Notes: generated by a model not told the origin, from the letters alone. 33,437 nt of DNA from a virus (IMGVR_UViG_2540341028_000013), one strand, 5' to 3'. Shown: positions 2,878 through 26,370, numbered from the stretch's first letter. Made by a program: numbers and translations.

Positions 2878-4046
<1,169 letters not shown>

Positions 4047-4054
4047 CCACTTCA

Positions 4055-6057: not shown

Positions 6058-6082
6058 CGGGGCATAAATTTTTTATGCCCCG
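6058..6082. terminator. Perfect palindromic hairpin just downstream of Q (possible bidirectional terminator)
   Basis: CGGGGCATAAA-TTT-TTTATGCCCCG, 11-bp stem; lies 27 bp beyond the Q stop on the minus strand. Confidence 0.4.
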
Positions 6083-6108
6083 GCGAAGCAGCAGACAAGC
6101 GAAGCGCG

Positions 6109-7145
6109 TCAGGATGTGGGCTGGATGTCTAACAGTGCGTAAGGGTTAAAGCGGATCACCTCTTCGCCAAGCCAGTCATTGATGTGCTTCATGGCCTCCA
6201 TGACGGGCATCAGCTCGTTAATTGCGTAAACCCGCGCGGCCTTCTCCACATCACCAAACGCACTTTTTTCACCCGGCATCGCCCCCATCAGTTGCGGCGG
6301 AACGCGGTGCGCAGCCAGCACATCATCACGGGATGCCGCCTTAACATTCATGAACTCATCCTTTGCGGTGATCTGCTGGAACGGCAAAATTTGCACCCCC
6401 TCTTTGCCCCCGTTGGGCGCATGAATGAGCACGTTTTTAAACGCACCACCACCACGCGCACCCTGTAGCGTTTCTTTCAGGGAGTCCATGCTTTCGCGGT
6501 TTACCTGCGCGGCACCGATGTAGATGATGCACCCGGCGTGGGATCCGTTGTCGTAATACAGTTTTCTGAACATGTCCGCCGAATGAGACAGGCTGGCCGA
6601 GAGTAATGCGCCGAGATATTCCGGCATGCCGTAGATTTCCTGGTTAATGTCAGGATTCATCAGGTGACACACTTTGCCTGGGCGAAACTGAAACGCATCC
6701 TTGCCATCCTGCACATACCTCCATGATTCAAGATCGCTTCCGCGTCGCATGTATTTCGCCAGGGCGTGCCGTAATTTAAGCGGTTCGCCGAGCATATTGC
6801 TTCGAAGCTCAAGGAATGCGTTACCGAACACAAACCAGTCCAGCGCCAGCGCCGAGAAATCCTGCCGGGAAAGCAGCGGGTGCGGGATGTAGCAACCGAG
6901 CAATACATTGCGCTTAAAATAAAGCGCAGACTGATGCCAGGACGTTTGCCGGGCAGCTCTTGCCAGACCGTACCAGTCCACCGGGGTTTCATACCACCGC
7001 CCGTTATCAGCACAGTACATATTGTCCAGCAGGTCAGGCGATAAGGACCATCAAATGTGAATGCACTGAGCGATGATTCTTTCCTGAGCGCATCAGCGAG
7101 ATCAATGCGTGAACTCATGCGCACTTTTTTATTTTTTCTGCTCAT
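6109..7145 (-). pseudogene. Q: P2-like portal protein gpQ, frameshifted near 7045
   Basis: Start ATG overlaps the P stop (ATGA). The N-terminal frame (MSRKNKKV...AFTFDGP) then degenerates; the conserved remainder (SLSPDLLDNMYCADNGRWYETPVDWYGLARAAR...HRVPPQLMGAMPGE...) is in another frame. A single missing base in a CC/TT dinucleotide at about 7044-7048 would restore one ORF of about 345 aa. Confidence 0.8.
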
Positions 7146-8896
7146 CAGAACTCCATAACCGTGAAACGCTCGTTTTCTCCTTCGCCGCCAATCGGTTCGT
7201 TAATGACAGCAAGCATGGTTGCCCACGCAAGGTCGCCGTGGCTGATCCCCCTCGCTCGGTCCGTTTCGTAAGTGATAAAGCCGCCCGGTGTTTTCACCTT
7301 ACGCACGGCGTTAAAGGCCGCGACCAGCTCGCGTTCGGCGCGATCGTATTCCCACCGCCCGGCACGCATTATTTGCAGCATTTTCAGTACCAGCGACCGT
7401 TTTGATGACAGCGTGAAGGTGTACGGAATAGCGGCAGGGAAAAACCGTTTCACTATCTGATAAACAGCCTCCCCGTTCCCGCCCGTCACATCAATGCCGA
7501 TGTGTTCCACGTTGTAGCGACACGTGAACTCTTCAATGACTCTGGCCTGTTCTTCAAACTCCAGCCCCTGAACGCGTCGCGTCTCCACCGTTCGAAAACG
7601 GCCACCAGGAACAGACGGAGGAACCACCACGGACACAGCGCCGCTGTCGCCGTTGCCACTGCTGCCGTTTGCGTCATACCCAATCCATACCGGACGATTC
7701 CCCATCGGGCGGGGAGCAAAAGGTTTCCAGTCTTTCCAGTCGTCGTATCCGTCAACGCCGCAGCCAATCAGGATATTCAGGTTAAATGCCGATTCCCCTT
7801 CGCGGACAAACTCACACATATAGAGATTGAGGAACTCGTCTTCGGTGTTTTCATCACGAATTTCGTCGATATCGGTGTGTTTCCAGCCGTGATTAACCAC
7901 ATCTTCCAGCGTGACAATTTGCCGCCACGTCCGGTCAGGGCAGATAAGCCCGTTATGCAGCGTTTTCCAGTCCACAGAAAAACGCTGGCGTTTATGCGAG
8001 GCCTTTTTCTCGTTCCAGCGGTCGCCGTTCCAGTAGGCGTATGCCTCGTGCGTTTCGGTGGATGGCGTGGAGAAGTAGGTGCGCCGCAGTCCGCTGAGGG
8101 TTGCCATAGCGCCAGCCACCTTGCGCAGTTCAGCAAAGCGACTGACCCAGAAAAATTCATCAAAATAAAAATTGCCCGTATAGGACTGTGCCGACGCAGC
8201 AGAAGTGCCGAGAAAATGCAGCTCTGCGCCGTTGGAGAGGATGATTTTATCGCCCCCTTTCAGCTCCACATCAACTTCAGCCGCGGCCTTCTGAATAATG
8301 CTTTTAAACTGGAACGCCTGACGACGCGACGCAGACAAAAAAATCTGGTTACGCTGGTAAGGTTGCGCCACATCGTCACGCAGCGCCATCAGCAGTGCTT
8401 CCTGTGCAAAATACCAGGTCGCCCCAATCTGTCGGGATTTCAGGATCATCCTGTTACGTATCCCGGCTTCCCTGCAAAGGGTCAGGGAGTCAAACCAGCC
8501 CCGCTGATGCCACTCCAGCCTGCTGATGATTTTTTCCCGCAGTGCGGCAATCTGTTCCGGCGTGAAATGATTTTTGAGTTTTTTCGCCCGGCCTTTCTTT
8601 CCTGCGGCCATCACATCCGGCTGGCCATCATGCAGCTTTTTAAGCTGCCGGGTCAGCAGGTCTATTTCCTTAAAGTCACCGCCTGTTTTATTCTGTTTTT
8701 CAGTAAGCTGGATGAGGCGCGCATCGATGGACTGCGTGACACGCTGCCCGGGTGGCGTTTCATCCCACTGGTCACGTTTTTTCCACGCATAAATCGTGTT
8801 CGGGTTTATTCCCATCAGACGTGATATTTCTGCGGGCGGATAACCCTGCCAGTAAAGTTGCCGCGCACGCTGGCGCACAAAAGCGTCCTGAATCAT
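7145..8896 (-). CDS. P: P2-like terminase large (ATPase) subunit gpP
   Basis: Intact 583-aa ORF (P2 gpP is about 590 aa); position immediately upstream of Q on the same strand as in P2. Confidence 0.9.
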   Translation of the reverse strand: MIQDAFVRQRARQLYWQGYPPAEISRLMGINPNTIYAWKKRDQWDETPPGQRVTQSIDARLIQLTEKQNKTGGDFKEIDLLTRQLKKLHDGQPDVMAAGKKGRAKKLKNHFTPEQIAALREKIISRLEWHQRGWFDSLTLCREAGIRNRMILKSRQIGATWYFAQEALLMALRDDVAQPYQRNQIFLSASRRQAFQFKSIIQKAAAEVDVELKGGDKIILSNGAELHFLGTSAASAQSYTGNFYFDEFFWVSRFAELRKVAGAMATLSGLRRTYFSTPSTETHEAYAYWNGDRWNEKKASHKRQRFSVDWKTLHNGLICPDRTWRQIVTLEDVVNHGWKHTDIDEIRDENTEDEFLNLYMCEFVREGESAFNLNILIGCGVDGYDDWKDWKPFAPRPMGNRPVWIGYDANGSSGNGDSGAVSVVVPPSVPGGRFRTVETRRVQGLEFEEQARVIEEFTCRYNVEHIGIDVTGGNGEAVYQIVKRFFPAAIPYTFTLSSKRSLVLKMLQIMRAGRWEYDRAERELVAAFNAVRKVKTPGGFITYETDRARGISHGDLAWATMLAVINEPIGGEGENERFTVMEF

Positions 8897-9050
8897 TGCT
8901 CCCCCTGAGTAATTACAGGAAGATTACCCGCGCGCGAAACTGTTCTCCTTAACCCTCTGTTCTGGCCGTTTTCTTACAACAAAAGCCCTTTGTATCAGCC
9001 TGTTACGCTTTGCCATCATGACTGAAGAACCAGTCAGAGGGGCAAAAACT
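8897..9050. promoter_or_regulatory. Divergent late-promoter region between P (leftward) and O (rightward)
   Basis: By synteny with P2, where Ogr-dependent promoters P_P and P_O diverge here; individual promoter elements not confidently mapped. Confidence 0.3.
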
Positions 9051-9887
9051 ATGGCTAATGAAAAAAAGACATCCCGCAAAAAGTTTCGCGTGGCTGTCTC
9101 CGGATCAACTGTTGATGGCCGTGAAATCAGTCCGGTGCATCTGCGTGAAGCCGCCGAGAACTTCAACCCGGATGTTTACGCTGCCCGCGTGAACGTTGAG
9201 CACTATCTCTCGCCATGCCCGTCAAGCGAATTTTCCGCAATGGGCGATGTCACCGCACTGAGTACGGAAGACATTACGGAAGGTCCGCTGGCCGGACGTA
9301 CTGCGCTGTATGCAGAAATCGAACCGACCGAGCGCATGAAGCAGCTTGTTGCGGACGGCAAGAAAATCTATTCCAGTATCGAACTGCACCCGCAGTTCTC
9401 CGTTAACGGGCGCGCCTATCTGGTCGGGCTGGCGATGACCGACACCCCGGCAAGCCTGGGCACTGAGCGCCTGAAATTCACGGCACAGCAACGTCAGGCG
9501 GTGATGACGTTTAACAGTATCCAGGGTGAAGCGCCGCTTATCTCCGAAGCCATCGAGTCTGAAATCATCGAAATGGCAGAACAACGCCAGGAAGAAGGCA
9601 CCCAGTGGTTTAACCGCGTAATGGGGATTATTGGCCGTGGCCGCAAAGCGGATGACGCCAGTTTTTCCCGTATTCAGGAAGCGGTGGAAGGCGTCGCAAC
9701 GTCACAGGCCGACATTATCGACCGTTTTAATGTGCTGGAAACCCGCCATCAGCAGGACCGCCAGAAAATTACGTCACTGACCACAGAGCTGGCAGCACTG
9801 AAGGAAAAACTGCGCACGCAGGACGGCGATCCGCAGAACCGCTTCACCGCAACGGGCGCAGCCTCCGACCAGCTGGCCGACTTCTGA
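9051..9887 (+). CDS. O: P2-like capsid scaffolding protein gpO
   Basis: 278 aa from ATG 9051 (RBS AGAGGGG); KFRVAVSGSTVDGREISP...YLVGLAMTDTPASLGTE resembles P2 gpO (FRIGVEGDTCDGRVIS...YLVGLAVTDDPASLGTE). Confidence 0.85.
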   Translation: MANEKKTSRKKFRVAVSGSTVDGREISPVHLREAAENFNPDVYAARVNVEHYLSPCPSSEFSAMGDVTALSTEDITEGPLAGRTALYAEIEPTERMKQLVADGKKIYSSIELHPQFSVNGRAYLVGLAMTDTPASLGTERLKFTAQQRQAVMTFNSIQGEAPLISEAIESEIIEMAEQRQEEGTQWFNRVMGIIGRGRKADDASFSRIQEAVEGVATSQADIIDRFNVLETRHQQDRQKITSLTTELAALKEKLRTQDGDPQNRFTATGAASDQLADF

Positions 9888-9910
9888 TTAGACAAAGGAG
9901 CAAATTTTTT

Positions 9911-10962
9911 ATGAATCTGGTGATGTCAGATATTACCCGCAACAAGCTGGGTTGCTATATGGCGCAGCAGGTGTCGCTTAATAATATCCCGGTATCTGCA
10001 CTGGTGTCGCGATTTACCGTGGAACCCGCGGTGCAGCAGCGTTTTGAAAACGCCTCAAAGGAAAGTACCGAATTTACGAAAAAAATAACGTGATCGGCGT
10101 GACCGACCAGAAAGGCGAAAAAATCCTCCTGGATACCACAGGACCGATTGCGCGCACGAATACCAGTTATGACGGCACAAAACGCCGTAACCCGAATAAC
10201 GTGGTTGATCTGAAAAACCGCAAATATCAGTGTGAACAGGTGAACTACGACACGTTTATTTCGTATCCGCAGCTTGATGCCTGGTCGGCACACCCTGATT
10301 TTCAGTCCCGCATCAGCGCACAGATTGCCCGACAGGTGGCGCTTGACCGCATCATGATCGGTTTCAACGGCACGTCTCACGCGGATGAGTCCAACTTCAG
10401 CACCAACAAGCTGCTTCAGGACGTTAACGTGGGCTGGCTGGAGCACATCAGAACCGACGCCAGCGAACGCGTTATGAATGACGTGACGCTGACCTCCCGC
10501 AACATGGACAACACCGTGGCGCACGCGGGTAAGTATGCGAACGCTGATGCACTGGTACAGGACGCGCGTTCATCCCTGCTAGATGAATGGCACAAGGAAG
10601 CTGACGACCTCGTGGTGATTATGGGGCGCAACCTGTTTAACTCGCTGCGTCTGCCCGTGCTGAACAGCATCAGCGGCCAGAATCCCAATGCGGAATTACT
10701 CGCCGGGCAGCTCATCCTGTCATCGCGCACCATTGGCGGGCTGGGCGTGTTCCTTGCGCCGTTCTTCCCGGATGCAACGATGCTGATCACCTCGTTCAAC
10801 AACCTGTCGATTTACTGGCAGAAAGGTTCAATGCGTCGCCTGATGAAAGACGAGCCGGAATACAACCGCATCGCCACCTACCAGTCCATCAATGACGCTT
10901 ATGTCGTTGAAGACTATGGCAAGTGCGCGATGGTTACTGGCCTGAAGTTCGCCGACAGCTAA
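9911..10962 (+). pseudogene. N: P2-like major capsid protein gpN, frameshifted at about 10087
   Basis: N-terminal 60 codons (…FTVEPAVQQRF…TEFTKKIT*) and the remaining 290 codons (…IGVTDQKGEKI…YVVEDYG…) are in different frames; restoring one A in ATAACG at about 10086-10090 gives TKKINVIGVTDQKGEKI, colinear with P2 gpN (TRINIVPVSEMKGEKI). Confidence 0.8.
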
Positions 10963-10971
10963 TCAACTCAC

Positions 10972-10990
10972 GGCGGGCATCATGCCCGCC
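10972..10990 (+). other. GC-rich hairpin between N and M
   Basis: GGCGGGC-ATCAT-GCCCGCC palindrome directly after the N stop; no T tract follows, so more likely an attenuator or RNA-stability element than a full terminator. Confidence 0.3.
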
Positions 10991-11007
10991 TGTAACGGAG
11001 AGCAAAA

Positions 11008-11754
11008 ATGATTACTCCTGCACAACAACACTGGCAGAACGTGATGGCACAGCGCGCAGGCCGGGCGAATGAAGGCGTGGACCACGCCGCGCGTACCGCG
11101 CATGAAGAGGTGCTGTATCGTCTGCGTCTGGCACAGGCCCGGCTTAAGGGCGTACAGGCCAGAAGCGCGAAAGCCGCCATCAAAAAAGAGTTGTTGCCGG
11201 ATTTTTCCGGCTGGATTGAGGGAACGCTGGAGGCTGACGGCGGGCAGCAGGATGAAGTGATTGCCACGCTGATGGTGTGGGCGATTGACTGTGGCGATCT
11301 TCCGCTTGCGCTGCGTATCGGCGCGTATGTAGTCCGTCACAACCTCATCATGCCGGATAACTTTGGCCGTACTGCTGCCACGGTACTGACCGAAGAAATC
11401 TGTAATCCGGTACTGACGCAGGCCGGGACGGATGCCGACGCGGATTTGTCCGCCTTTATCGAACCACTGGACACCCTCCGGGAGATTGTCACCGACCAGG
11501 ACATGCCGGACGAAGTGCGCGCCAAATTATGCAAAGCGTGCGCCTTTGCCCGCCGTGGCCTGAGTGATGCGGACAGCATGGCCCTGTCACTGAAGCTGCT
11601 GCGCGAAGCAATGCACCTGAACCCGAACGCAGGTGTGAAACGCGAGATTGCAACCCTTTCCCGCGCCCTGAAAAAAGCCGATTCCGCAGCCGAACCAGAA
11701 GACGCCAGCGCACAGCAGGCGCAGGACGAAAGCAGCAAAAAGCAGCAAAAGTAA
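11008..11754 (+). CDS. M: P2-like terminase small subunit gpM
   Basis: 248 aa; ...MPDEVRAKLCKACAFARRG... matches P2 gpM (...MPDEVRAKLHKITG...); RBS GGAGAG upstream. Confidence 0.85.
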   Translation: MITPAQQHWQNVMAQRAGRANEGVDHAARTAHEEVLYRLRLAQARLKGVQARSAKAAIKKELLPDFSGWIEGTLEADGGQQDEVIATLMVWAIDCGDLPLALRIGAYVVRHNLIMPDNFGRTAATVLTEEICNPVLTQAGTDADADLSAFIEPLDTLREIVTDQDMPDEVRAKLCKACAFARRGLSDADSMALSLKLLREAMHLNPNAGVKREIATLSRALKKADSAAEPEDASAQQAQDESSKKQQK

Positions 11755-11921
11755 AAAGACAACGCGGAAGCCTGCAACACGAAAAACCACCGCGACGCAG
11801 AAGGCGAAGCGCGGTTAACGACTGACCCCGTCAGCGGGCGGCGTGCGCGGTGTTCCAGTTTGACTCCGTGACCGTTTACACCGCGCACCCACCGCCCGAT
11901 TTTTTTTCAGGAGTGAACCCC

Positions 11922-12416
11922 ATGACTATAGTTGCCAGAACTGAACCCGGACCCGCAGAGGACGACATCACCGATACCGATGATGGCGATACCCGCATTT
12001 CAGCGGGTGCATTCTGGCCGGATATTGTGCTGCGCGAGCTGCGTCTGGCGGTACGACTGCCGGGGCGCGTGACCACCTCCCGCCTGCTGCATACTGCCAC
12101 CGGGGCTGTGGCACACGTTACCCGCGAGCTGGAAGCATGGCAGCAGGAACAGCAGGCAGCTGGCCATCAGACGCTGGCCGATGTTCCGGCACCCGTAATT
12201 AACGGAGAAAGCGTCAATCTCTGGCACTGGCGCAATGCTGTTTATACCGCCACGCGCGCCCTGATTCTGGAGCGTTATCGTGATGCAGACACTACGGACA
12301 AGGGCGACCGCCGGGCAGACGCTCTGGATATACAGACATCGGATTTGTGGCGTGATGTGAGCTGGGCCATCTCTGACATTCTGTGCCGCCCGCGAATCTT
12401 TGCGGAGTTGTGCTGA
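11922..12416 (+). CDS. L: P2-like head completion/stabilisation protein gpL
   Basis: 164 aa from ATG 11922 (RBS CAGGAG); gene order after M; stop overlaps the X start (TGATG). Confidence 0.8.
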   Translation: MTIVARTEPGPAEDDITDTDDGDTRISAGAFWPDIVLRELRLAVRLPGRVTTSRLLHTATGAVAHVTRELEAWQQEQQAAGHQTLADVPAPVINGESVNLWHWRNAVYTATRALILERYRDADTTDKGDRRADALDIQTSDLWRDVSWAISDILCRPRIFAELC

Positions 12417-12616
12417 TGAAAGTGAAGGCACTGGAAGGCGACACCGTGGATTCGCTCTGTTTCCGGTACTACGGCACGACGCAGGGCGTCACCGAAAAGG
12501 TGCTGGATGCCAACCCCGGACTCTGTCAGCAGGTATTTCTGGACGCCGGGCAGGAAGTGGAGATGCCGGAGCCGGAGAAGAAGAAACGAGAAATGATTCA
12601 GTTGTGGGGGGAGTAG
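12416..12616 (+). CDS. X: P2-like tail protein X (LysM-like)
   Basis: 66 aa, MKVKALEGDTVDSLCFRYYGTTQGVTEKVLDANPGL resembles P2 gpX (MKTFALQGDTLDAICVRYYGRTEGVVETVLAANPGL). Confidence 0.85.
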   Translation: MKVKALEGDTVDSLCFRYYGTTQGVTEKVLDANPGLCQQVFLDAGQEVEMPEPEKKKREMIQLWGE

Positions 12617-12618
12617 CA

Positions 12619-12942
12619 GTGAGCACCATTCAAACAGGGATCACAGAGCAGGTTATTGCGTGGCTCTTTGACCACCTGCCAACGGTGTATGCAGTAGGCG
12701 CGGCGGTCAGCATTTCCGCGCTGATGAGCCTTTATGACGGACGAACACTGGTTCAGACCGTAACGGGATCGCTGGCGTGCGGCGTTCTTGCCATGGCCGT
12801 GGCCGGGTCGTTGCGCTTCTTCGGGTTTCCTGAAGATGCCGTGACGTTTATCGGCGCATCAATCGGTTTTATGGGTGCAGAGAAAGCACGCGACAAGGTT
12901 ATTGCGGCCTTTAATCGCAGGGTGAAGGAGAAGGACGAATGA
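12619..12942 (+). CDS. Putative holin
   Basis: About 107 aa from GTG 12619 (RBS GGGGGGAG); two or three hydrophobic helices; sits between X and the endolysin as P2 gpY does. Confidence 0.6.
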   Translation: MSTIQTGITEQVIAWLFDHLPTVYAVGAAVSISALMSLYDGRTLVQTVTGSLACGVLAMAVAGSLRFFGFPEDAVTFIGASIGFMGAEKARDKVIAAFNRRVKEKDE

Positions 12943-13331
12943 GCAACACATTTAAATTCAGCAGCCGGAGCGAAAAGAATTTGCAGGGTGTAAATCCTGA
13001 TCTGGTGAAAGTGACCCGACGGGCACTGGAAATCTCGGAAGTGGATTTTGGTATCACCGAAGGGTTGCGCAGCCGTTACCGCCAGAAGCAACTGGTGGCC
13101 ACGGGTAAGAGCCAGACCATGAACAGCCGCCACCTTACGGGGCATGCCGTGGATGTTGTGGCTTATATCGGCAGCCAGATGTCATGGGAATGGCCGCTGT
13201 ACGAAAAAATCGCAGCAGCATTCAGACAGGCCAGCCGGGAACTGAATATTCCGGTGGAATGGGGCGGCGACTGGAAGACCCTGAAAGACGGACCGCATTT
13301 TCAGTTACCACACGGAGCCTATCCGGCATGA
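12939..13331 (+). CDS. Endolysin, peptidase M15 family (L-alanyl-D-glutamate endopeptidase type)
   Basis: 130 aa with the conserved SRHLTGHAVDV and GGDW...GPHFQL motifs typical of zinc D-Ala-D-Ala carboxypeptidase-like phage endolysins; not the P2 K-type lysozyme. Confidence 0.8.
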   Translation: MSNTFKFSSRSEKNLQGVNPDLVKVTRRALEISEVDFGITEGLRSRYRQKQLVATGKSQTMNSRHLTGHAVDVVAYIGSQMSWEWPLYEKIAAAFRQASRELNIPVEWGGDWKTLKDGPHFQLPHGAYPA

Positions 13332-13735
13332 AGCTCTGGCCCACGCTTGGCGTCGCTTTCCTTCTGACTGCCGGATGGGGAACATCCATGCGTCTGTCGT
13401 GGTCGCTGGGCCGGGAGAACGCCAGAAACGAAGCGCAGGCCAGCACCCTGAAAAGTACCGCCGACACCCTGAATATCATCAGCGCCGGGGTACAGGATAT
13501 GCAGCAGGTGCTGGCGCAACTCCGCGTGGAAAATCAGCAACGCAATCAGGACGGAGAGGTAAGACGTGAACAGCTACGCAACGATATTGCAAAAGATGAA
13601 TGCGCCCACGCTTTGCCTGACGCTCGTTTTACTGACAGGCTGCGCAGGCACGCAGAACGCGCCACTGCCAGCGCCGTCAGTCCGGCTTATACCGCAGACG
13701 CTGACCATACCGGTAACGCCTCCCCCCTTCCCTGA
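13328..13735 (+). CDS. i-spanin (Rz/LysB-like)
   Basis: ATG 13328; N-terminal membrane anchor (LWPTLGVAFLLTAGWG) then charged coiled-coil region; an o-spanin ORF is embedded and overlapping. Confidence 0.65.
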   Translation: MKLWPTLGVAFLLTAGWGTSMRLSWSLGRENARNEAQASTLKSTADTLNIISAGVQDMQQVLAQLRVENQQRNQDGEVRREQLRNDIAKDECAHALPDARFTDRLRRHAERATASAVSPAYTADADHTGNASPLP

Positions 13736-15894: not shown

Positions 15895-15897
15895 ATC

Positions 15898-17317: not shown

Positions 17318-17319
17318 GC

Positions 17320-19305
17320 ATGAGTACCACAACACGAAAATTTAAAACCATTATCACCGATACGGGTGCAAAAAAATTAGCTCAGGTAGCCGCGCCAGAT
17401 GGTAAGCCTGTCCGCCTGACTCATATGGCCGTGGGCGACGGTGGCGGCACGTTGCCCACACCAGACAGTAAGCAGACCCGTCTGGTGCATGAGGTGTGGC
17501 GACATACTGTTAATCGCGTCATCCTGGACGCAACACATCAGAACCGCATTATTGCGGAGCTGGTTATTCCTCCTGAAACGGGCGGATTCTGGATCCGGGA
17601 AATTGGTGTATTTGATGAGCACGGCGATTTAATCGCGGTGGGAAATACTGCCGAAAGTTACAAGCCAGCCGTTGCCGAAGGGTCCGGTCGTGCACAAACA
17701 TTTCGCACCATTCTGACCGTATCCAGCACTGCCACCGTGGCGCTTACCGTGGACAACACCATGGTGATGGCCACAGTGGATTACGTGGATGACAAACTGA
17801 AAGAGCATGAACAGTCACGACGTCACCCGGACGCCTCGCTGACCGCAAAAGGCTTTGTTCAACTCAGTAGCGCCACTAACAGCGTGTCTGAAACGCAGGC
17901 TGCAACGCCGAAAGCAGTAAAGGCCGCGTATGATCTTGCTAACGGTAAATATACTGCGCAGGATGCCAGCACGACGCGAAAAGGCCTTGTCCAGCTCAGT
18001 AGCGCCACCAACAGCACGTCTGAAACGCAGGCTGCAACGCCGAAAGCAGTAAAGGCCGCGTATGACCTTGCTAACGCAAAATATACCGCTCAGGACGCCA
18101 CGACGGCACAAAAAGGGATAGTCCAGCTCAGTAGTGCCACCAACAGCACGTCTGAAACACTGGCCGCGACATCGAAAGCGGTTAAGGCGGTAATGGATGA
18201 AACGAACAAGAAAGCGCCCTTAAACAGTCCTGCGCTGACCGGAACGCCAACAACGCCAGCTGCGCGACAGGGAACGAATAATACCCAAATCGCAAGCACG
18301 GCTTTCGTTATGGCTGCGATTGCCGCCCTTGTAGATTCGTCACCTGACGCACTGAATACGCTGAACGAGTTAGCGGCGGCGCTGGGAAACGCCCCGAATT
18401 TTGCGACCACCATGACTAACGCGCTTGCGGGTAAGCAACCGAAAGATGCCACCCTGACGGCGCTGGCCGGGCTTGCTACTGCGGCAGACAGGTTTCCGTA
18501 TTTTACGGGGAATGATGTCGCCAGCCTGGCAACCCTGACAAAAGTCGGGCGGGATATTCTTGCGAAATCGACCGTTGCTGCCGTTATCGAATACCTCGGT
18601 TTACGAGAACTCGGCACAAGCGGGGAGAAAATACCGTTACTCAGTACAGCGAATACCTGGACCAATCGACAAACATTCAGCGGTGGCCTTTCTGGGGAAC
18701 TGTCCGGCAATGCCGCTACTGCAACAAAGCTGAAAACAGCACGAAAAATTGCTGGAGTTGGTTTTGATGGTTCTAGCGATATTTCAATTAGTGCCAAAAA
18801 TGTCAATGCATTTGCACTCCGACAAACAGGTAATACTGTTAATGGTGATACATCCGTTGGATGGAATTGGGATAGTGGTGCATATAACGCCCTGATTGGT
18901 GGTGCATCTGCATTAATTCTTCACTTTAATATAAATGCTGGTAGCTGTCCTGCCGTACAATTCCGTGTGAATTATAAAAATGGTGGCATTTCCTACAGGT
19001 CGGCTCGTGATGGTTATGGGGTTGAATTAGGTTGGTCAGATTTCTATACCACGACACGAAAACCTTCAGCGGGAGATGTTGGTGCATATACGCGGGCAGA
19101 ATGTAACTCAAGGTTTATTACAGGTATTCGCCTTGGCGGTCTGTCATCTGTTCAGACATGGAATGGTCCCGGCTGGTCTGACAGGTCAGGTTATGTCGTT
19201 ACGGGTTCAGTTAACGGAAACCGTGATGAATTAATTGATACAACACAGGCAAGGCCAATTCAGTATTGCATTAATGGGACGTGGTATAACGCGGGGAGTA
19301 TTTAA
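17320..19305 (+). CDS. H: Tail fibre protein gpH (constant N-terminal part plus currently expressed variable C-terminal cassette)
   Basis: 661 aa; conserved P2-type N-terminus (MSTTTRKFKTIITDTGAKKLA...); internal tail-fibre repeats; C-terminus ...RPIQYCINGTWYNAGSI paralogous to the inverted cassette ending ...[17 protein letters not shown]. Confidence 0.85.
   Translation: MSTTTRKFKTIITDTGAKKLAQVAAPDGKPVRLTHMAVGDGGGTLPTPDSKQTRLVHEVWRHTVNRVILDATHQNRIIAELVIPPETGGFWIREIGVFDEHGDLIAVGNTAESYKPAVAEGSGRAQTFRTILTVSSTATVALTVDNTMVMATVDYVDDKLKEHEQSRRHPDASLTAKGFVQLSSATNSVSETQAATPKAVKAAYDLANGKYTAQDASTTRKGLVQLSSATNSTSETQAATPKAVKAAYDLANAKYTAQDATTAQKGIVQLSSATNSTSETLAATSKAVKAVMDETNKKAPLNSPALTGTPTTPAARQGTNNTQIASTAFVMAAIAALVDSSPDALNTLNELAAALGNAPNFATTMTNALAGKQPKDATLTALAGLATAADRFPYFTGNDVASLATLTKVGRDILAKSTVAAVIEYLGLRELGTSGEKIPLLSTANTWTNRQTFSGGLSGELSGNAATATKLKTARKIAGVGFDGSSDISISAKNVNAFALRQTGNTVNGDTSVGWNWDSGAYNALIGGASALILHFNINAGSCPAVQFRVNYKNGGISYRSARDGYGVELGWSDFYTTTRKPSAGDVGAYTRAECNSRFITGIRLGGLSSVQTWNGPGWSDRSGYVVTGSVNGNRDELIDTTQARPIQYCINGTWYNAGSI
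17848..18213 (+). repeat. Tandem in-frame 132-bp (44-aa) repeats within H, about 2.7 copies
   Basis: KGFVQLSSATNSVSETQAATPKAVKAAYDLANGKYTAQDASTTR / KGLVQLSSATNSTSETQAATPKAVKAAYDLANAKYTAQDATTAQ / KGIVQLSSATNSTSETLAATSKAVKA...; near-identical at DNA level. Confidence 0.85.
18584..18609 (+). repeat. gix/cix-like recombination site (left crossover site) inside H
   Basis: TTATCGAATACCTCGGTTTACGAGAA; about 20 of 26 positions match the reverse complement of the right site, including the central CCTCGGTTTAC core; encodes ...EYLGLRE..., the constant/variable junction of H. Confidence 0.6.
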
Positions 19306-19307
19306 CG

Positions 19308-19841
19308 ATGATGCACTTAAAAAACATTACTGCTGGCAACCCTAAAACAAAAGAGCAATACCAGCTAACAAAGCAATTTAACATCAAATGGCTTTATTCA
19401 GATGATGGGAAAAACTGGTATGAGGAACAAAAGAATTTCCAGCCAGACACTTTGAAAATGGTCTATTACCATAACGGCGTTATTATTTGTATTGAAAAGG
19501 ATGTTTCAGCAATTAATCCGGAAGGCGCAAGCGTCGTTGAATTACCTGATATTACAGCAAATCGCCGGGCTGATATTTCGGGGAAATGGTTGTTCAAAGA
19601 TGGCGTAGTGATAAAGCGAACTTATACCGAGGAAGAGCAGAGGCAACAAGCGGAAAATGAAAAGCAAAGCCTGTTGCAACTTGTCAGGGATAAAACCCAG
19701 CTATGGGACTCACAGCTACGGCTGGGCATCATTTCCGACGAGAATAAACAAAAATTAACCGAGTGGATGCTCTATGCGCAGAAAGTCGAATCTACAGACA
19801 CCTCCAGCCTGCCAGTAACGTTTCCCGAACAACCAGAATGA
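19308..19841 (+). CDS. G: Tail fibre assembly protein (gpG/Tfa), currently expressed orientation
   Basis: 177 aa starting 2 bp after the H stop; N-terminus [22 protein letters not shown] paralogous to the inverted copy. Confidence 0.8.
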   Translation: MMHLKNITAGNPKTKEQYQLTKQFNIKWLYSDDGKNWYEEQKNFQPDTLKMVYYHNGVIICIEKDVSAINPEGASVVELPDITANRRADISGKWLFKDGVVIKRTYTEEEQRQQAENEKQSLLQLVRDKTQLWDSQLRLGIISDENKQKLTEWMLYAQKVESTDTSSLPVTFPEQPE

Positions 19842-19869
19842 GAGAAGGCCCGATATTGGGCCTTAATTT

Positions 19870-20398
19870 TTACTCAGGCTTTTGTGGCCATTCGGGATTT
19901 GCTGTATCCACACGGCTGACCAGAACGCTGTAGCGTTCCCATGACTCCAGTCGTGTGCGTTCCTCATCCATCGCCATATTCAGCCTGACAGCGCGTTCCA
20001 GTGGCTGAATAACGCTTTCAGCTTCAGAAAGCAACGCGACCTTTTGTGATTCGGCCTGTTGTTGCTGTTCGTCTGCTGTATAAATCCGCTTAACCACAGT
20101 TCCGTCCTTAAACATCCACTTCCCTGAATCATCGGCACGACGATTGGCTGTTATATCTGGAATCTCAACGACACTAAAGCCTTCGGGATTAAGCGTTGGG
20201 GCATCTTTGGTTATGGCAACAATAATATTATTTTCGTCGTATACAATCTTTATGGTGTCGTCCTGAAAGTTATTTACTTCCTCATACCAGTTTTTACCGT
20301 CTTCGGACCATAACCAGATAACATCAAAATTCTTTGTTAGCTGATATTGTTCTTTTGTTTTTGGATTTCCGGACTTAATATTTTTTAATATGCTGCAT
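19870..20398 (-). pseudogene. Alternative tail fibre assembly protein (tfa'), frameshifted in codon 6-7
   Basis: ATG at 20398 follows the H' stop by 3 nt, but MQHIKKY* hits a stop; the conserved body ([20 protein letters not shown]...) is in the adjacent frame. Junction is a 6-T run at 20381-20386. Confidence 0.65.
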
Positions 20399-20401
20399 AA
20401 T

Positions 20402-21262
20402 TTACACCTGTGCGACGTTATACCATGTGCCATTGATGTATTTTTGTATTGGTCTGAAGATGGCTTCATCATCGCCATCTACTTCACCAATGATTCTTAA
20501 TCCGGTAATTGCGTGTCCGGCTTTTTCATAACGACCACCACGCGCCATCAATTGAACAACACGCGTACCCAGGCGAACATCTTTTACATAGCGTGAATCA
20601 AAATTCCCCCAGTTGCTGGGCTGTATCTGACCGTTAACAGAAAATATTACCGAGTTATCTGTATTTCGCTGGCTATAGAAATGCCATCCTGCCTCATTGC
20701 CTAACTCTGCAACTACTGGACGGGTTGAAGCACCCCATAAATTAAACGTTGCATTCTTTGTGGAGTTGTTGGAGCTGGATAGCGTGAATTTTTTACCATC
20801 CCCGGCCTGAATATTTTTAAAAGCAATAGCCACTCCATTCTGAAAGCGGAATACACGCTGACTATTAGCATAAACATCCAGAATACCGTCTCCATTCTGT
20901 TTAAATCCGGTGTCATTATCACCAAGAACAATAGAGCTACCACCTAACGCATTCGTCGAACCAACTCCAAGACTGCCATTAATGACAGCATTAACAAGAA
21001 TATTTAGTGCATCCCATTTCAGCGTCATCAGGTCTTTTGTTGTGGTGCTCTGGCGGCTTCTCCATTTGAAATATTCATTGCCGTTGTCGCCTGTTTCAAA
21101 CCACATGTATGAATCAGTGTCACCATCGGCATCATTTTTAAATCCAATCTTCGCCCAGTCAGTATTTCGAATCCAGGCAAGGATTGAGTCATTTTCAAAA
21201 GTAAGCCCACCGGACAAGGTATCGCCATTTTTTTGCACGGCGTTACCAGCCCTGTTTACCGT
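20402..21262 (-). CDS. Alternative tail-fibre C-terminal cassette (H'), silent in this orientation
   Basis: Frame open from the right gix site through ...[24 protein letters not shown]... to ...[18 protein letters not shown]; no start codon of its own upstream (TAA just left of the site); would fuse to H after inversion. Confidence 0.7.
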
Positions 21263-21288
21263 TTCCTGTAAACCGAGGTTTTAAATAA
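21263..21288 (-). repeat. gix/cix-like recombination site (right crossover site)
   Basis: TTCCTGTAAACCGAGGTTTTAAATAA, close to the Gin/Cin/Pin site consensus as recalled (TTCCTGTAAACCGAGGTTTTGGATAA); 55 bp upstream of the invertase start. Confidence 0.7.
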
Positions 21289-21342
21289 TGGCCGTTTCTG
21301 GCCTGCATGGCATGATTTGCGCTTTTGGACGGGAGATTCAGT

Positions 21343-21942
21343 GTGCTGATTGGCTATGTAAGGGTATCAACAAATGACCAGAATACAGACCTGCAACGAA
21401 ACGCTCTTGTTTGTGCAGGATGTGAACAAATATTTGAAGATAAATTAAGCGGGACAAAGACAGACCGACCGGGATTAAAACGCGCTTTAAAGCGCCTTCA
21501 AAAAGGTGACACGCTGGTTGTCTGGAAACTGGATCGCCTCGGGCGAAGCATGAAACATCTGATTTCTCTCGTCGGGGAACTACGGGAGCGAGGGATTAAT
21601 TTTCGCAGTCTGACCGACAGCATAGACACATCTTCTCCAATGGGGCGTTTTTTCTTCCACGTGATGGGTGCCCTGGCTGAAATGGAACGTGAATTAATTG
21701 TTGAACGTACACTGGCCGGGCTGGCGGCAGCGCGCGCAAGGGGGCGCACAGGCGGACGTCGACCGAAGCTGACAAAAGAACAGCATGAGCAAATAGCAAG
21801 GCTAATCAAAAACGGGCACGACAGAAAACAACTGGCAATAATTTACGGCATTGGCACATCGACGATTTATCGTTATCACCCTGTAGGCGATATACAGACT
21901 GAAGAAACAACCGGGCAGACTCAGGAAAATGAAAACCGCTAA
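21343..21942 (+). CDS. pin: Site-specific DNA invertase, serine recombinase of the Pin/Gin/Cin/Hin family
   Basis: GTG start 21343 (RBS GGGAG); (M)LIGYVRVSTNDQNTDLQRNAL...GDTLVVWKLDRLGRSMKHL...GINFRSLTDSIDTSSPMGRFFFHVMGALAEMERELIVERT, near-identical to e14 Pin as recalled, including the catalytic Ser in YVRVSTNDQ. Confidence 0.9.
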   Translation: MLIGYVRVSTNDQNTDLQRNALVCAGCEQIFEDKLSGTKTDRPGLKRALKRLQKGDTLVVWKLDRLGRSMKHLISLVGELRERGINFRSLTDSIDTSSPMGRFFFHVMGALAEMERELIVERTLAGLAAARARGRTGGRRPKLTKEQHEQIARLIKNGHDRKQLAIIYGIGTSTIYRYHPVGDIQTEETTGQTQENENR

Positions 21943-21965
21943 TCTGACCATTAGCGGTTTTTGTG
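21935..21965. terminator. Putative bidirectional rho-independent terminator between convergent pin and U
   Basis: ACCGCTAAT-CTGACC-ATTAGCGGT hairpin followed by TTTTGTG on plus and preceded by A-rich sequence (T-rich on minus). Confidence 0.5.
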
Positions 21966-21970
21966 TTAAA

Positions 21971-22465
21971 TCAGAACAGCCCTTTAACTGAACTGGCCGC
22001 GCTGTTAAGAGATGATGTCACCTTATCTTTGAAGCCGGACAGCATATCACTGAACGATGAGGATTGCAGGCGCTCCCGCAAATCCTCATCACAGCGTTCA
22101 AGAGTCAGTGAAAATTCTATCTTTTTCGCCTTACCGTAGCGATCAAACTCGGAGCGGGTCGTATTCGTTTCAGTCAGGACATACATGCCGTAAATCTGCC
22201 CGACGCCATCAATCAAAGGCCAGGGTCGTCCTGTATACGCCTGCGTAGTCAGCAGCGACAGCGACACTTCGCCACCTGTAATTTCAGGATAAAGCACACC
22301 AGAAAGAACGATGCGATCATCACCTGCACCGATATACTGCCAGCTTGCTGAACGGTTAACGCGTTCATTTTTCACATGCCGCCAGCTTTTGTTTTGCTGT
22401 AACTGCTGATGCGGCAGCGTGCGCAGCTCAAAAACAAACATGCCGTAGATCATCATCATGGCCAT
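21971..22465 (-). CDS. U: P2-like tail protein gpU
   Basis: 164-aa ORF; ...SWRH...LSG.LYPEITGG.VSL..L...GRPWPLIDG.G.IYGMYV... pattern as in P2 gpU. Confidence 0.8.
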   Translation of the reverse strand: MAMMMIYGMFVFELRTLPHQQLQQNKSWRHVKNERVNRSASWQYIGAGDDRIVLSGVLYPEITGGEVSLSLLTTQAYTGRPWPLIDGVGQIYGMYVLTETNTTRSEFDRYGKAKKIEFSLTLERCDEDLRERLQSSSFSDMLSGFKDKVTSSLNSAASSVKGLF

Positions 22466-22471
22466 GACTCC

Positions 22472-25315
22472 TCAATCTTTATCGTAAAAACAGCCACGCC
22501 CGGCACGGGCGCGCCGTTCCATTTCTGCCCTGACCATTTCACCGACCAGTTTCGCCAGTTCGCGGGGATTCTGCGTAACAACGTTATGCAGATGAACATG
22601 AATTTCACCACCAAATCCGAAGGCAACAGGCTCCCGGTTACGGGAAGTTACAGGAACTGATGCCACTGGAGATCGTATAGCCTCCGCCACCGGGCGGGAG
22701 CTGGCCGCAACAACAGGGACCAGCGCCGGAGGCAGCGGAGCCGGAACCACGGGTGTGATATTAATTGCGGGGGCAGGCTTACTGACCTGCGCAATCTTCC
22801 GCTCCTGCCACTCCCCACGAACAGCAAGTGCTCGGGGCAGGTTTTTAAAGACAATATCGCCGGGGCCAATGCGTTTTTTCGTCTCCTCAACCAGCTTACC
22901 TGTGTTATCAGCAATTTTGCTGAGTCTGCGCAGCGTACCGGTATTGCTGTCTGTGAGCGGTTTATTGTCTTTGGGGTTATCACCTCCGGTGCCATTGCCA
23001 TTTTCCACAGGCTTCGGCGGATTGATTTTCGCCAGATCCCCCTGAAGCAAGGCAACCTTGTCCTGAAGAATGGCCGCACGCTGTGCGTCTTCGATTTTCT
23101 TGCGCGCCCTTTCCGCTTCATCCGGAAGCACACCAAGCTTTTCAAGTATCCACGCCAGCGTATCCAGCAACATTTTTGCAGGTGTCAGAACAAGTTGTAA
23201 CGCACCGCCAAGAACGTTACCGAATATCTCGCCAGCACTGGTACATTTATCCAGAGTTTCCTTGCTGGACTCCATCGGTGACAGCAGCGATTTAAACCAG
23301 TTAAACACCTGGCTGATCCCACTCCCGATTGCGTCAAAAACAGGACCAAACCGTTCAAAGGTTTCGCGCAACGGGGTCAGCCTTTCCATAATCCCGCTGA
23401 ACACCCCGGCAAAAAATGCCCTGATGGGATCCCAGTATTTCCAGATAAGAACGGCAGCTCCGGCAAGCGCAGCCACGATAAGACCAACCGGACTGAACAA
23501 CGCCCCGATAGCGCCTCCCAGTAAAGAAACGGAACCCGTCACCATTCCCCATAGTGCTGGCAGAACCCTGACAGCATTCATTGATCCGGTCAGGAGGGAA
23601 AAACCAAGACGCAGTTTTGCCAGCGGGCCAGCAAGCACACCAATAGCCAGCGACAACGAGCCAACCGTTGCAGTCATTGCCAGCAATGCACCGCCTGCAA
23701 TCAGTAGCTGGCGCGTCAGTGCGGGATGGGCCTGCGCCAGCGCCGTCACCTTTGATACCACACGCGTGAGCCACTGCGTGACAGAACGCAGCGGACCGTC
23801 AATCAGATCTGCAATGCGGATGCGCAACCCTTCCCATGCACTGCTGAGTGATTTCAGATCGCCGTCAAGGTTGTTGGCCATAACCTTTGCCGTGCGTTCA
23901 GCCTCACCGCGCGCGCCTTCAAGTTCTTTTCTCAGTTTGGGTAAGGAGCCGTCACCTGCCGCATCAACGAGGGCCATAAATGATGTGAAAGCCTCTTCTC
24001 CGGCAATGTCCTTAAAGAACGATACCCGGTCAACTTCCCCGTATTTGCGGGTAGCTTTATAAAGGTCAGCCAGCACATCCTCCATCGGGCGCATTTTGCC
24101 CCCGGCATCCGAGACAGACACGCCAAGCTCTTTCAGCGCCTCTGCTGCCGCCTTTGGCGGTGATGCCAGACGAGCCAGGCTGGCACGCATTGCCGTACCA
24201 GCATCACTCCCCCTGATACCCATATTCGCCAGCACGCCCGCCATCGCTGCGGCCTGCTCCAGAGATATTCCCAGCTTACCCGCCACCGGACCTGCATATT
24301 TCATGGTTTCACCCAGTGCGCGAAGGTCAGTGTTGGTACGGGTAAACGCTGCGGTGAGTGTGTCGCCGACCCGGTCCATCTGGTCAGCAGAAAGACCGAA
24401 CTGCGTCAGAATATTTGAGCCAATATCCGCCGTCTCACCGAGGTCCATACCGCCAGCCGTTGCCATGCTCAGTACGCCAGGGAGCGCAGCCTGAATGGCC
24501 TGTGGTGTAAAGCCAGCCATTGCAAGAAATGCCTGTCCACTGGCGGCATCGCCTGCGGTGAACTGCGTTTCAGAGCCAAGTTTTAACGCCTGCTCACGCA
24601 GCGCCTTAAACTGCGGGCTGTTCTGGTCGATTCGCGTCAGTGCCTGAACGCGGGACATCTCTTTGCCGAACCCGATCGCAGGCTGCAAAAAACGCCCGGC
24701 AGCATAGCCGCCCGCCGCTGCCGCACCAATTGCCAGCGCACCACCTGTTTTCAGTTTTCCCGCTGTTTCCTGCGCGCGCGAATACCGCTCACGCGCCCGT
24801 GTTACACGCGCAAGCGCCTGCCGTTCGCGTTCAAGCTGGTTGTTGTACTGTTCGGTGCGTCTGATGGCCTGCTGGATGGTGTTATCGCTGCCTGTCAGGG
24901 AAATGCCGTGGCGTTTCAGCTCTCCGCCAAGCTCCCGCATTTTCTGAATTTCCCGTGTGCGCGATTCATTCAGGCGTTCAAGCCGGGTGCTTAACTGCTG
25001 CATCAGCTTTTGTTGTTTTTCGCTGAGCACTGTACCCGTGCGTTGTAACTGATTAAGGGCGTTAAGCTGGCGTCGTGCTTTCACGATGCCAGCATCCGCT
25101 TTACTGACAGCGTCACGGGCGCGCTCAAATGATCGCGCCTGACGCTCGAGATTTTTGATCGCCCCCTGCGTTCGCTGGATGGAGTCACCAAACTGCCCCA
25201 TCAGGCGGCGGGCGTTTTCGGCAGGCCGGGTCAGCCTGTCAACGGCGCTGAAAGCGACCCGGATATCAAGAGTCTTCATTGTCTGCATTCCCGCTACGAA
25301 GTGCCGCCCGCTCAC
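22472..25315 (-). CDS. T: Tail tape measure protein gpT
   Basis: Intact 947-aa ORF; long coiled-coil N-terminal half, Gly/Ala-rich hydrophobic middle segments, position between E/E' and U. Confidence 0.85.
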   Translation of the reverse strand: MSGRHFVAGMQTMKTLDIRVAFSAVDRLTRPAENARRLMGQFGDSIQRTQGAIKNLERQARSFERARDAVSKADAGIVKARRQLNALNQLQRTGTVLSEKQQKLMQQLSTRLERLNESRTREIQKMRELGGELKRHGISLTGSDNTIQQAIRRTEQYNNQLERERQALARVTRARERYSRAQETAGKLKTGGALAIGAAAAGGYAAGRFLQPAIGFGKEMSRVQALTRIDQNSPQFKALREQALKLGSETQFTAGDAASGQAFLAMAGFTPQAIQAALPGVLSMATAGGMDLGETADIGSNILTQFGLSADQMDRVGDTLTAAFTRTNTDLRALGETMKYAGPVAGKLGISLEQAAAMAGVLANMGIRGSDAGTAMRASLARLASPPKAAAEALKELGVSVSDAGGKMRPMEDVLADLYKATRKYGEVDRVSFFKDIAGEEAFTSFMALVDAAGDGSLPKLRKELEGARGEAERTAKVMANNLDGDLKSLSSAWEGLRIRIADLIDGPLRSVTQWLTRVVSKVTALAQAHPALTRQLLIAGGALLAMTATVGSLSLAIGVLAGPLAKLRLGFSLLTGSMNAVRVLPALWGMVTGSVSLLGGAIGALFSPVGLIVAALAGAAVLIWKYWDPIRAFFAGVFSGIMERLTPLRETFERFGPVFDAIGSGISQVFNWFKSLLSPMESSKETLDKCTSAGEIFGNVLGGALQLVLTPAKMLLDTLAWILEKLGVLPDEAERARKKIEDAQRAAILQDKVALLQGDLAKINPPKPVENGNGTGGDNPKDNKPLTDSNTGTLRRLSKIADNTGKLVEETKKRIGPGDIVFKNLPRALAVRGEWQERKIAQVSKPAPAINITPVVPAPLPPALVPVVAASSRPVAEAIRSPVASVPVTSRNREPVAFGFGGEIHVHLHNVVTQNPRELAKLVGEMVRAEMERRARAGRGCFYDKD

Positions 25316-25316
25316 G

Positions 25317-25534
25317 TCAGCTAACCACTTCGCCGGGCGTCATCATGAAAATTTCGGCGGGCGACCAGTTAAAAATGGCGGCAATATCCGCCACCAGATC
25401 TTCGATGTGCTCAAAGCACACCAGGGTGATTACGCTGCCGTCTCCTGCACGCTCTTCGCGCCAGAGTCTGGCTCGCTCATAAAATTTACAGCCACAGCGC
25501 ACAACTGAATAAAATCGCGTGACGACATTTTTTT
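25317..25534 (-). CDS. E' extension of the tail assembly chaperone (gpE+E' by -1 programmed frameshift)
   Basis: The -1 frame stays open from the A7 tract (plus-strand T7 at 25528-25534) to a stop at 25317 overlapping the T start; translation ...FEHIEDLVADIAAIFNWSPAEIFMMTPGEVVS. Exact slip position not determinable. Confidence 0.5.
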
Positions 25535-25804
25535 AATCATCACTTCATCCAGTCGTGGCGAGGTCACGCGAGGCAACAGCGTGAACATGGTATCCGCTTT
25601 CAGATTCAGCACATCAGACAGCGACAGACCACGCAGGGATCCAGCCTGCTCAATAGCCCCGGTGATCTCCACATACGTGATTTTTTCGCCACCACGCTCA
25701 ATTGGTCGGGTCAGTTTTACGCCACGTTCGACAGCCATATCCTCAACTGCCGTCACATTATCCGCCACGGTGTTATTCCGGGTTTCAGTATCGATGTCTT
25801 TCAT
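25430..25804 (-). CDS. E: Tail assembly chaperone gpE
   Basis: 124-aa ORF from ATG 25804 (RBS AAAAGGAGA); position between FII and T. Confidence 0.7.
   Translation of the reverse strand: MKDIDTETRNNTVADNVTAVEDMAVERGVKLTRPIERGGEKITYVEITGAIEQAGSLRGLSLSDVLNLKADTMFTLLPRVTSPRLDEVMIKKMSSRDFIQLCAVAVNFMSEPDSGAKSVQETAA
25528..25534 (-). promoter_or_regulatory. Candidate slippery tract for the E/E' -1 ribosomal frameshift
   Basis: AUUAAAAAAAUG on the mRNA; the -1 frame downstream is the long E' ORF. Confidence 0.4.
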
Positions 25805-25859
25805 CTGTTGTCTCCTTTTCAGTCAGAGGCGACGCACTGCGCCGCCAGCATATTACTTA

Positions 25860-26370
25860 TCAGCCAAGCCCAAGCGCGGAACGGATGCGATCGGGCACAA
25901 TGTCCTTGCCGTCCTTCCGGTAAATGAAGTTCAGCAGGTCAATCTCCCACAACGGGCGATCGTTAACACTCAGCTTGTAGTAGGTGTTTTAATGGCGTAA
26001 GTGTGTGATGTGGCTTCGCCCTGTTTGGCTTCCCCCATATCAATTTCCGTCACACGTCCGCGCATTTCGACTTCATACAGGTCGCTTTCTGCATCGGTGT
26101 AGTATTCACCCGCAAAACGCAGCAGCGTGCCGTCAATCGTGCCGCCATACTTAAGGAACAGCTCACGAACTGCGCCCCCATGACAAAGCTCGCATCAAGC
26201 GCGGAGTCGTCCAGACCGAGATCAATACTTACCGCACCCATCATGCCACCACCCCGGTAGCTGTCGGTTTTGCGCGTCAGCTTAGGCAGAGTGACGGACG
26301 TCACATTACCCACTTCGTTTTCACCATCCACAAACAGCGTAAAAAAGCGAAGATGTTTTGGCACAGCCAT
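25860..26370 (-). pseudogene. FII: P2-like tail tube protein gpFII, interrupted by two single-base homopolymer indels
   Basis: Three consecutive frames carry colinear tube-protein sequence: MAVPKHLRFFTLFVDGENEVGNVTSVTLPKLTRKTDSYRGGGMMGAVSIDLGLDD... / ...AVRELFLKYGGTIDGTLLRFAGEYYTDAESDLYEVEMRGRVTEIDMGEAKQGEATSHTYAIK / NTYYKLSVNDRPLWEIDLLNFIYRKDGKDIVPDRIRSALGLG*. Junctions at a G5 run (about 26176-26180) and an A4 run (about 25986-25989). Confidence 0.75.

Follow-up and report, generated by a model that had tools for sequence, protein, structure and literature searches.

Most late-gene lesions of a P88/P2-like prophage remnant in Shigella are shared among strains and nested

Cryptic prophages are well known in Shigella, an insertion sequence (IS)-rich host in which frameshifts, nonsense mutations and IS insertions produce pseudogenes that are inherited vertically. 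Accelerated gene loss has been described in this group (PMC2374995). The P88/P2-like phages (Xuanwuvirus), among them Escherichia phage 503458, P88 and the prophages of E. coli O145 RM8995, UTI89 and ETEC4088, are equally familiar. The DNA analyzed here, a 33,437-nucleotide stretch listed as a virus (IMGVR_UViG_2540341028_000013; hereafter the window, from whose first base all positions are counted), holds the late region of a P2-type prophage with ISs on both sides. A first-pass annotation had reported that five of its morphogenesis genes (Q, N, R, tfa′ and FII) are split across adjacent frames, and regarded sequencing error and genuine decay as equally compatible with that pattern. Comparison with intact relatives and with other assemblies of the same locus indicates that real mutation accounts for eight of nine point lesions. 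The element does not differ essentially from other Shigella cryptic prophages. It is one more example, nothing new in kind, resolved lesion by lesion across strains.

Affiliation and host locus

The window is a 100.000% match to contig AERO01000026.1 of assembly GCA_000193935.2, Shigella flexneri CDC 796-83, a serotype 6 strain described as “partially sequenced” (PMC4206707). The contig was retrieved as two loci, covering positions 1 to 20093 (L020) and 16050 to 33437 (L009); other loci are likewise given L numbers where they must be told apart. The exact locus was not found in any complete E. coli genome. The element is bordered, in related Shigella genomes, by btuC/btuE/btuD and, at its opposite end, by hok/ihfA/pheT; the insertion side adjoining ihfA matches that of the ETEC4088 prophage.

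Over 98% of positions 6000 to 27600, the late region shares 97.8% identity with Escherichia phage 503458 (Peduoviridae, Xuanwuvirus), and identity to the intact prophages of RM8995 (L001), UTI89 (L002) and ETEC4088 (L003) is 98.0 to 99.7%, giving a range of 97.8 to 99.7% for the group. The late-gene order is also that of these phages: Q-P, O-N-M-L-X-Y-K-lysB-lysC-R-S-V-W-J-I-H-G, the invertible fiber segment, U-T-E′-E-FII-FI, D and ogr. The same Pfam families are present. From the annotation of collinear relatives and Pfam matches on called genes, P2-type families were assigned for portal, terminase, GPO, P2 capsid, GpL, X, R, S, V, W, J, I and H, as well as for sheath, tube, GpE, tape measure, GpU, GpD and Ogr. 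Unlike the P88/P2-like phages, the element has no integrase, repressor or replication genes; its early region has been replaced by IS elements, ogr is cut, and the morphogenesis genes carry nine point lesions. With Q, N, FII, D, E′ and ogr damaged, it is not a complete functional genome, and the element is a remnant, no longer a phage.

The RefSeq record of Escherichia phage 503458 (NC_049341.1; L029) has its sheath, terminase, portal and scaffold/protease genes in several pieces and contains IS100. This nearest classified “phage” is probably itself a degraded or error-laden prophage prediction.

Lesions and their recurrence in independent assemblies

Lesions were called against the three intact relatives (RM8995, UTI89 and ETEC4088) by base-level alignment and gene-by-gene mapping; none of the nine point lesions is present in these relatives. 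About 15 billion predicted proteins were searched for the exact truncated products, and DNA was fetched from independent assemblies and checked at every lesion site. Eight of the nine point lesions recurred base for base in independent assemblies, and the source names of contigs with truncated products include S. boydii Sb227, S. flexneri CCH060 and CDC 796-83, and S. dysenteriae. Since these eight are shared by independent assemblies, are nested in agreement with clustering by single-nucleotide polymorphisms (SNPs), and include 10-bp events and nonsense substitutions, we take them, on the sequence evidence, to be real mutations. Sb227, a finished genome from 2005 that was presumably Sanger sequenced, carries the lesions in N, M, tfa′, E′ and D as well as both of those in FII, and has intact Q and R.

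The tail tube pseudogene FII (25860 to 26370, minus strand) has two 1-bp deletions, one shortening a run of six C to five (26175 to 26179; codon 64 of 170) and the other a run of five T to four (25987 to 25990; codon 129 of 170). Both were found in 9 of 9 other assemblies examined, and the exact 106-amino-acid (aa) fragment occurs on 953 contigs. A slightly different 106-aa truncated tail-tube product, named from E. coli DEC12B, occurs on 98 contigs; the C6-to-C5 lesion may reach past strains named Shigella. The late control gene D (tail/baseplate hub family; 27712 to 28821, plus strand) has a nonsense mutation, TCA to TAA, at 27832 to 27834 (codon 41 of 369), again in 9 of 9 other assemblies examined, with exact fragments of 40 aa on 643 contigs and 306 aa on 670. 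The major capsid pseudogene N (9911 to 10962, plus strand) has lost one T from TT after position 10086 (codon 59 of 350); this lesion is in every assembly retrieved, partly by construction of the set, which includes Sb227, and exact fragments of 60 and 290 aa occur on 636 and 690 contigs, respectively. Beside the N deletion, at 10079 to 10086, a G-to-A change makes a run of seven A from AAAAGAA, so that two changes lie at most 5 bp apart.

Two further lesions occur together in 4 of 9 other assemblies (Sb227, L008, L011 and L012). In the alternative tail fiber assembly gene tfa′ (19870 to 20433, minus strand), a T is inserted in AAA at 20389 (codon 4 of 175); the break had been placed at the run of six T at 20381 to 20386, which is in fact unchanged. 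Besides those four assemblies, L014, L019, L021 and L023 have this insertion. In the E′ frame (GpE family; 25266 to 25421, minus strand), the −1 frame extension of the tail chaperone E, TGG is changed to TGA at 25317 to 25319 (codon 35 of 51); PF06528 was assigned to the intact E′ product. E′ lies in the −1 frame relative to E and is open upstream of the E stop, as expected for a putative programmed E/E′ frameshift. E/E′ is the sole legitimate frame change in the region and was not one of the five splits noted at first.

The remaining point lesions lie in M, Q and R. The small terminase gene M (11008 to 11818, plus strand) has a 10-bp tandem duplication at 11729 to 11748 (codon 244 of 266) that exchanges 23 C-terminal residues for 5. 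The exact 248-aa product occurs on 436 contigs, Sb227 among them, and the duplication was present in all assemblies checked but L023, which is wild type. The portal pseudogene Q (6109 to 7145, minus strand) has a 10-bp deletion, GGTCATGCCC, with its junction at 7031 to 7036 (codon 37 of 348), between two GGTCA direct repeats. The same deletion was found in 10 further assemblies, two of them Logan re-assemblies of read runs (Logan runs are mostly Illumina), and the exact 303-aa C-terminal fragment occurs on 288 contigs. The adjoining large terminase gene P (7145 to 8896, minus strand; 583 aa) is intact. The tail completion gene R (13873 to 14341, plus strand) has an extra G, GG to GGG, at 13984 to 13986 (codon 38 of 155).

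Thus, all five genes named in the first-pass annotation are indeed out of frame relative to the three intact relatives, at about the places given, and alignment to the relatives bore out its statement that the indels go in both directions. Its description of the breaks as single-base indels at short homopolymers holds only in part: the two FII deletions, in runs of 5 to 6 bases, are the only lesions at real homopolymers, N and R are 1-bp changes in 2-base runs, Q is a 10-bp deletion and the tfa′ insertion is not at a homopolymer. The M duplication, the D and E′ nonsense mutations, an IS2-like element in ogr and an IS-replaced early region were additional to that account.

IS elements have replaced the early region at positions 823 to 4054. 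An IS3-family element (823 to 2132, plus strand, 1310 bp; orfA 877 to 1203, orfB 1200 to 2090), 97.3% identical to an annotated IS3-family element in the RM8995 locus, takes the place of the int-side (left) part of the prophage. Adjoining it, at 822/823, CDC 796-83 has a private 327-bp deletion of the rest of a 120-aa open reading frame (ORF) and of a 45-aa integrase remnant, both kept in all relatives examined, including CCH060. Leftover early genes follow at 2133 to 2581 (plus strand), namely a 66-aa ORF and a DUF4754 ORF, the latter assigned from a Pfam match on the orthologous 78-aa product and also present in Xuanwuvirus 503458. An IS911-like element (about 2805 to 4054, plus strand, left end approximate; orfA 2842 to 3180, orfB 3207 to 4046) was identified from matches to an annotated “IS3-like element IS911 family transposase” and from the restart of intact-prophage homology at 4055. 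It truncates parM and, together with the IS3-family element, replaces the C/cox/B/A region. The 5′-truncated parM (4040 to 4660, plus strand, 206 aa; Pfam ParM_N/StbA_N) corresponds to an intact gene of 960 nt in RM8995, and its N-terminal domain is matched only from profile position 119.

At the other end, the late-gene activator gene ogr (32325 to 32561, plus strand; Pfam Ogr_Delta) is cut at its 3′ end, after codon 65 of 86, by an IS2-like element (32521 to 33437, minus strand) that extends past the end of the window and matches an annotated “IS3-like element IS2 family transposase.” The cut was placed by comparison with the ETEC4088 ogr gene; the match to the intact locus stops at 32520. 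Past this element, the CDC 796-83 flank (L009) differs from the flanks of L004 to L013, which suggests an IS2-mediated rearrangement or a contig mis-join. That flank (L009, positions 1 to 2535) encodes a Pfam Inositol_P protein and a Metallophos/5_nucleotid_C protein, where other Shigella loci have hok/ihfA/pheT; we take these to be inositol-phosphatase-family and 5′-nucleotidase-family genes, possibly cysQ and cpdB.

Further damage is specific to other lineages. L004, L005, L007 and L010 have IS1 insertions in the 3′ portion of FII as well as the H/G region (corresponding to about 25909 to 25921 and to 19019), and the scaffold gene O is split in another Shigella lineage (L026, 7134 to 7970).

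Stepwise inherited decay and alternative readings

The lesions are nested: carriers of the two FII deletions, the D stop and the N deletion contain the carriers of the tfa′ and E′ lesions, within which the M, then the Q and then the R lesion follow. The number of contigs bearing each exact truncated product declines along the same series (FII, 953; N, 636/690; D, 643/670; tfa′, 506; M, 436; Q, 288; R, 1). Clustering on substitutions only, with indels ignored, grouped all Shigella copies into a single clade, to which ETEC4088 was the closest of the intact prophages, and united the tfa′ and E′ carriers in one sub-clade. The copies lie at the same chromosomal site, and lesion nesting agrees with the SNP clustering with one exception (L028). 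Nested lesions that match the SNP clustering point to stepwise inherited decay. Judged from these comparisons, the window very probably represents a vertically inherited, immobile P88/P2-like remnant between btuC and ihfA whose late genes have decayed step by step. S. boydii Sb227 and S. flexneri serotype 6 both belong to the lineage that carries it.

The integrase, immunity and replication module would have been lost first, by IS insertion and deletion. In an element immobilized in this way the late genes would no longer be needed and would be free to decay by ordinary mutation. The likely order is the two FII deletions, the D stop and the N deletion, followed by the tfa′ insertion and the E′ stop, the M duplication, the Q deletion and, if it is genuine, the R insertion. 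Replication slippage could account for the 1-bp indels, the Q deletion and the M tandem duplication, with substitutions to two stops and further IS insertion (IS2 in ogr) adding to the damage, in an IS-rich host where purifying selection was presumably weak.

The first-pass annotation had held that the choice between error and decay decides whether this prophage could still produce particles. That does not hold: since the portal, capsid, tail tube and D genes are broken and the integrase, repressor and replication genes are gone, no particles are expected whatever the status of R. The element is predicted from its gene content to be unable to excise, to replicate, or to build heads or tails. 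Nor are miscalls and pseudogenization equally compatible with the data, since pseudogenization is established by shared, nested lesions at five of the six sites first noted, leaving only R in question.

Several observations weigh against this picture of real, stepwise decay. The sequencing platform of CDC 796-83 is not stated in papers mentioning the strain or the AERO01 accession, and the R insertion is without support outside its own assembly. In L028 (Logan SRR36302413_75, equivalent to positions 5217 to 16757), the Q deletion has, on either side of it, the SNPs that characterize Q-intact copies. This homoplasy implies that the deletion arose twice, by slippage at GGTCA, or moved by recombination, and hence that the nesting is imperfect. 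Finally, the ratio of nonsynonymous to synonymous substitutions was 11:10 on the Shigella branch, compared with 34:139 between intact prophages (Fisher P = 0.002), and the short ETEC branch, at 6:3, was equally raised, so the elevated ratio is not specific to relaxed selection.

Since the R insertion is private to this assembly, it is the one lesion for which sequencing error is still a live reading. It may be a terminal-branch mutation of CDC 796-83 or a consensus error, with roughly even chances; the latter, in which only this base is an error of the draft and the strain’s true R gene is intact like those of its relatives, falls just short of an even bet. Wild-type GG was found in 18 other assemblies; 10 of these have the Q deletion too and are only 1 to 4 SNPs away from the window over about 10 kb. 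The repaired 155-aa allele was found on 826 contigs. Outside the CDC 796-83 assembly, there was no frameshifted R product for any of the plausible start codons (lengths of 82, 107, 105 and 102 aa were looked up), and a scan of species-representative genomes, of low power because few are from Shigella, gave 0 matches to the R junction. When the window was compared with 20 other assemblies (22 loci; indel positions normalized; 32.6 kb), as an internal control of error rate, it had two private differences, the G in R (an indel that none of the 13 covering loci shares) and a substitution at 25350. On the other side, the R site is a 2-base run and not a typical place for a miscall, and the assembly calls all 33 late-region runs of 6 to 8 bases as most other assemblies do. 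CDC 796-83 also has other private changes (the substitution at 25350, the 327-bp IS-adjacent deletion and the IS2-linked rearrangement), so that a terminal branch exists on which the insertion could have arisen.

Selection might instead have kept the remnant, as a tailocin or for its remaining phage genes, so that decay was selective and not neutral. Many large genes are intact (P, T, H, FI, the baseplate genes, the invertase and the lysis genes), and the tail fiber segment still inverts. Yet FII, D, the E+E′ chaperone and ogr are damaged in every Shigella copy or in large sub-clades, and the IS1 insertions in FII and H and the split O gene of other lineages add to this. With about nine lesions in 23 kb, there is a fair chance that genes of 2 to 3 kb stay intact by luck. 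We consider maintenance by selection very improbable.

A further alternative is that all the frameshifts are homopolymer miscalls of one error-prone assembly, from 454 or long reads, and that the late region is truly intact. The FII T5-to-T4 and C6-to-C5 changes do sit in homopolymers, the CDC 796-83 genome is an unfinished draft, and single-base indels that split ORFs, as in pyrosequencing or long-read data, are found in other public assemblies of the same prophage. Private one-base losses number 17 over 32.6 kb of CP026731.1 (L008/L015/L037) and 8 over 14.4 kb of CP026797.1 (L010), all in runs of 2 to 7 bases, while 14 of the 20 assemblies have none. Both are public “complete” genomes, and W, J, H, T, D and the cargo ORF described below are broken up by these losses, which are probably uncorrected long-read errors. 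Such errors are private to one assembly, consist of missing bases only and lie mostly in runs of 3 to 7 bases.

The lesions in the window are unlike these errors. Eight of the nine are on 288 to 953 contigs from different sources, recurring in up to 9 of 9 other assemblies, and only the R insertion is private. Only the two FII lesions lie in runs of at least 5 bases; the others are 10-bp events (Q and M), substitutions (D and E′) or changes in runs of at most 3 bases, and both indel directions occur. The late region (5676 to 28817) has 118 runs of at least 5 bases, 33 of them of at least 6, and the window has no private indel in any of the 118; its single private indel is in a 2-base run. The lesions, moreover, track the SNP phylogeny. 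Wholesale miscalling is therefore hardly credible as an explanation of the pattern.

Least probable of all, to the point of being negligible, is that the frameshifts are functional, with full-length proteins still made by programmed ribosomal frameshifting or phase-variable slippage, for although P2-type phages use one programmed −1 frameshift (E/E′, with E′ here in the −1 register) and two lesions sit in slippery-looking runs, intact relatives encode each affected protein in one frame, FII would need two separate corrections, Q is short by 10 bp and M long by 10 bp, D and E′ hold stop codons, and the lesions are fixed, without variation, inside sub-clades.

Tail fiber switch, cargo ORF and consequences for annotation

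The window contains a Gin/Cin-type invertible tail fiber segment (18580 to 21292), bounded by imperfect inverted crossover sites at 18580 to 18604 and 21268 to 21292 that agree at 21 of 25 positions in inverted orientation. An intact DNA invertase gene (21343 to 21942, plus strand, 199 aa; Pfam Resolvase and HTH_7) lies next to it. The segment was seen in both orientations among strains, being inverted relative to the window in L006, L008, L011, L014 and others. A serine invertase, inverted sites and both orientations together place it among the Gin/Cin-type switches. The occurrence of both orientations means that the invertase still works or did so recently; the switch in this dead prophage is flipping still, or was until recently.

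Within this segment, the tfa′ body has been re-fused to an upstream ATG, giving a 187-aa product in which nearly the whole protein is retained and which occurs exactly on 506 contigs. Since this form keeps the Caudo_TAP domain, it may still be functional. Public annotation hides the frameshift: the 187-aa form is named “MULTISPECIES: tail fiber assembly protein [Shigella].”

An intact cargo ORF (29070 to 32189, plus strand, 1039 aa) of low GC content (31 to 35%) occupies the stretch between D and ogr and stands outside the decay pattern. The protein had no match in Pfam, NCBIfam, PHROGs, PADLOC or PDB sequences, and the PGAP name “MFS transporter” was rejected as unsupported. The search found 183 homologues of about 1030 to 1070 aa in Enterobacterales, none with a Pfam domain. 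An AlphaFold2 model (predicted local distance difference test score, 80.9; predicted template modeling score, 0.66) has an N-terminal helical region of about 225 residues, probably membrane spanning, followed by a long helical repeat and alpha/beta parts. Fold searches gave only generic helical repeats and a domain-level HK97-like resemblance, in which a predicted domain of about 200 residues resembles HK97-type capsid/encapsulin proteins. A distant homologue lies on plasmid-sized contigs (108 to 206 kb) beside genes for an AAA_15/AAA_21 ATPase, a RES-domain protein, MazE/PIN and DUF3800, a neighborhood that resembles a defense/addiction island. The protein could be a new kind of antiphage or exclusion factor. 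That the dead prophage is kept in hundreds of Shigella genomes as a carrier of useful cargo, mainly this protein, with the frameshifts incidental, seems unlikely to us, and the ORF is a lead only.

For annotation, the ORF breaks described here should be recorded as pseudogenes of a defective prophage and not “polished away”; to score the locus as an intact or inducible prophage would be wrong. The comparison also gives a recipe for use where raw reads are not at hand: lesions that are shared and nested across independent assemblies point to real mutation, and those that are private, one-directional and confined to homopolymers point to error. Applied here, it flags the R base at 13984 to 13986, and it also picks out two public genomes, labeled “complete,” that evidently contain many indel errors.

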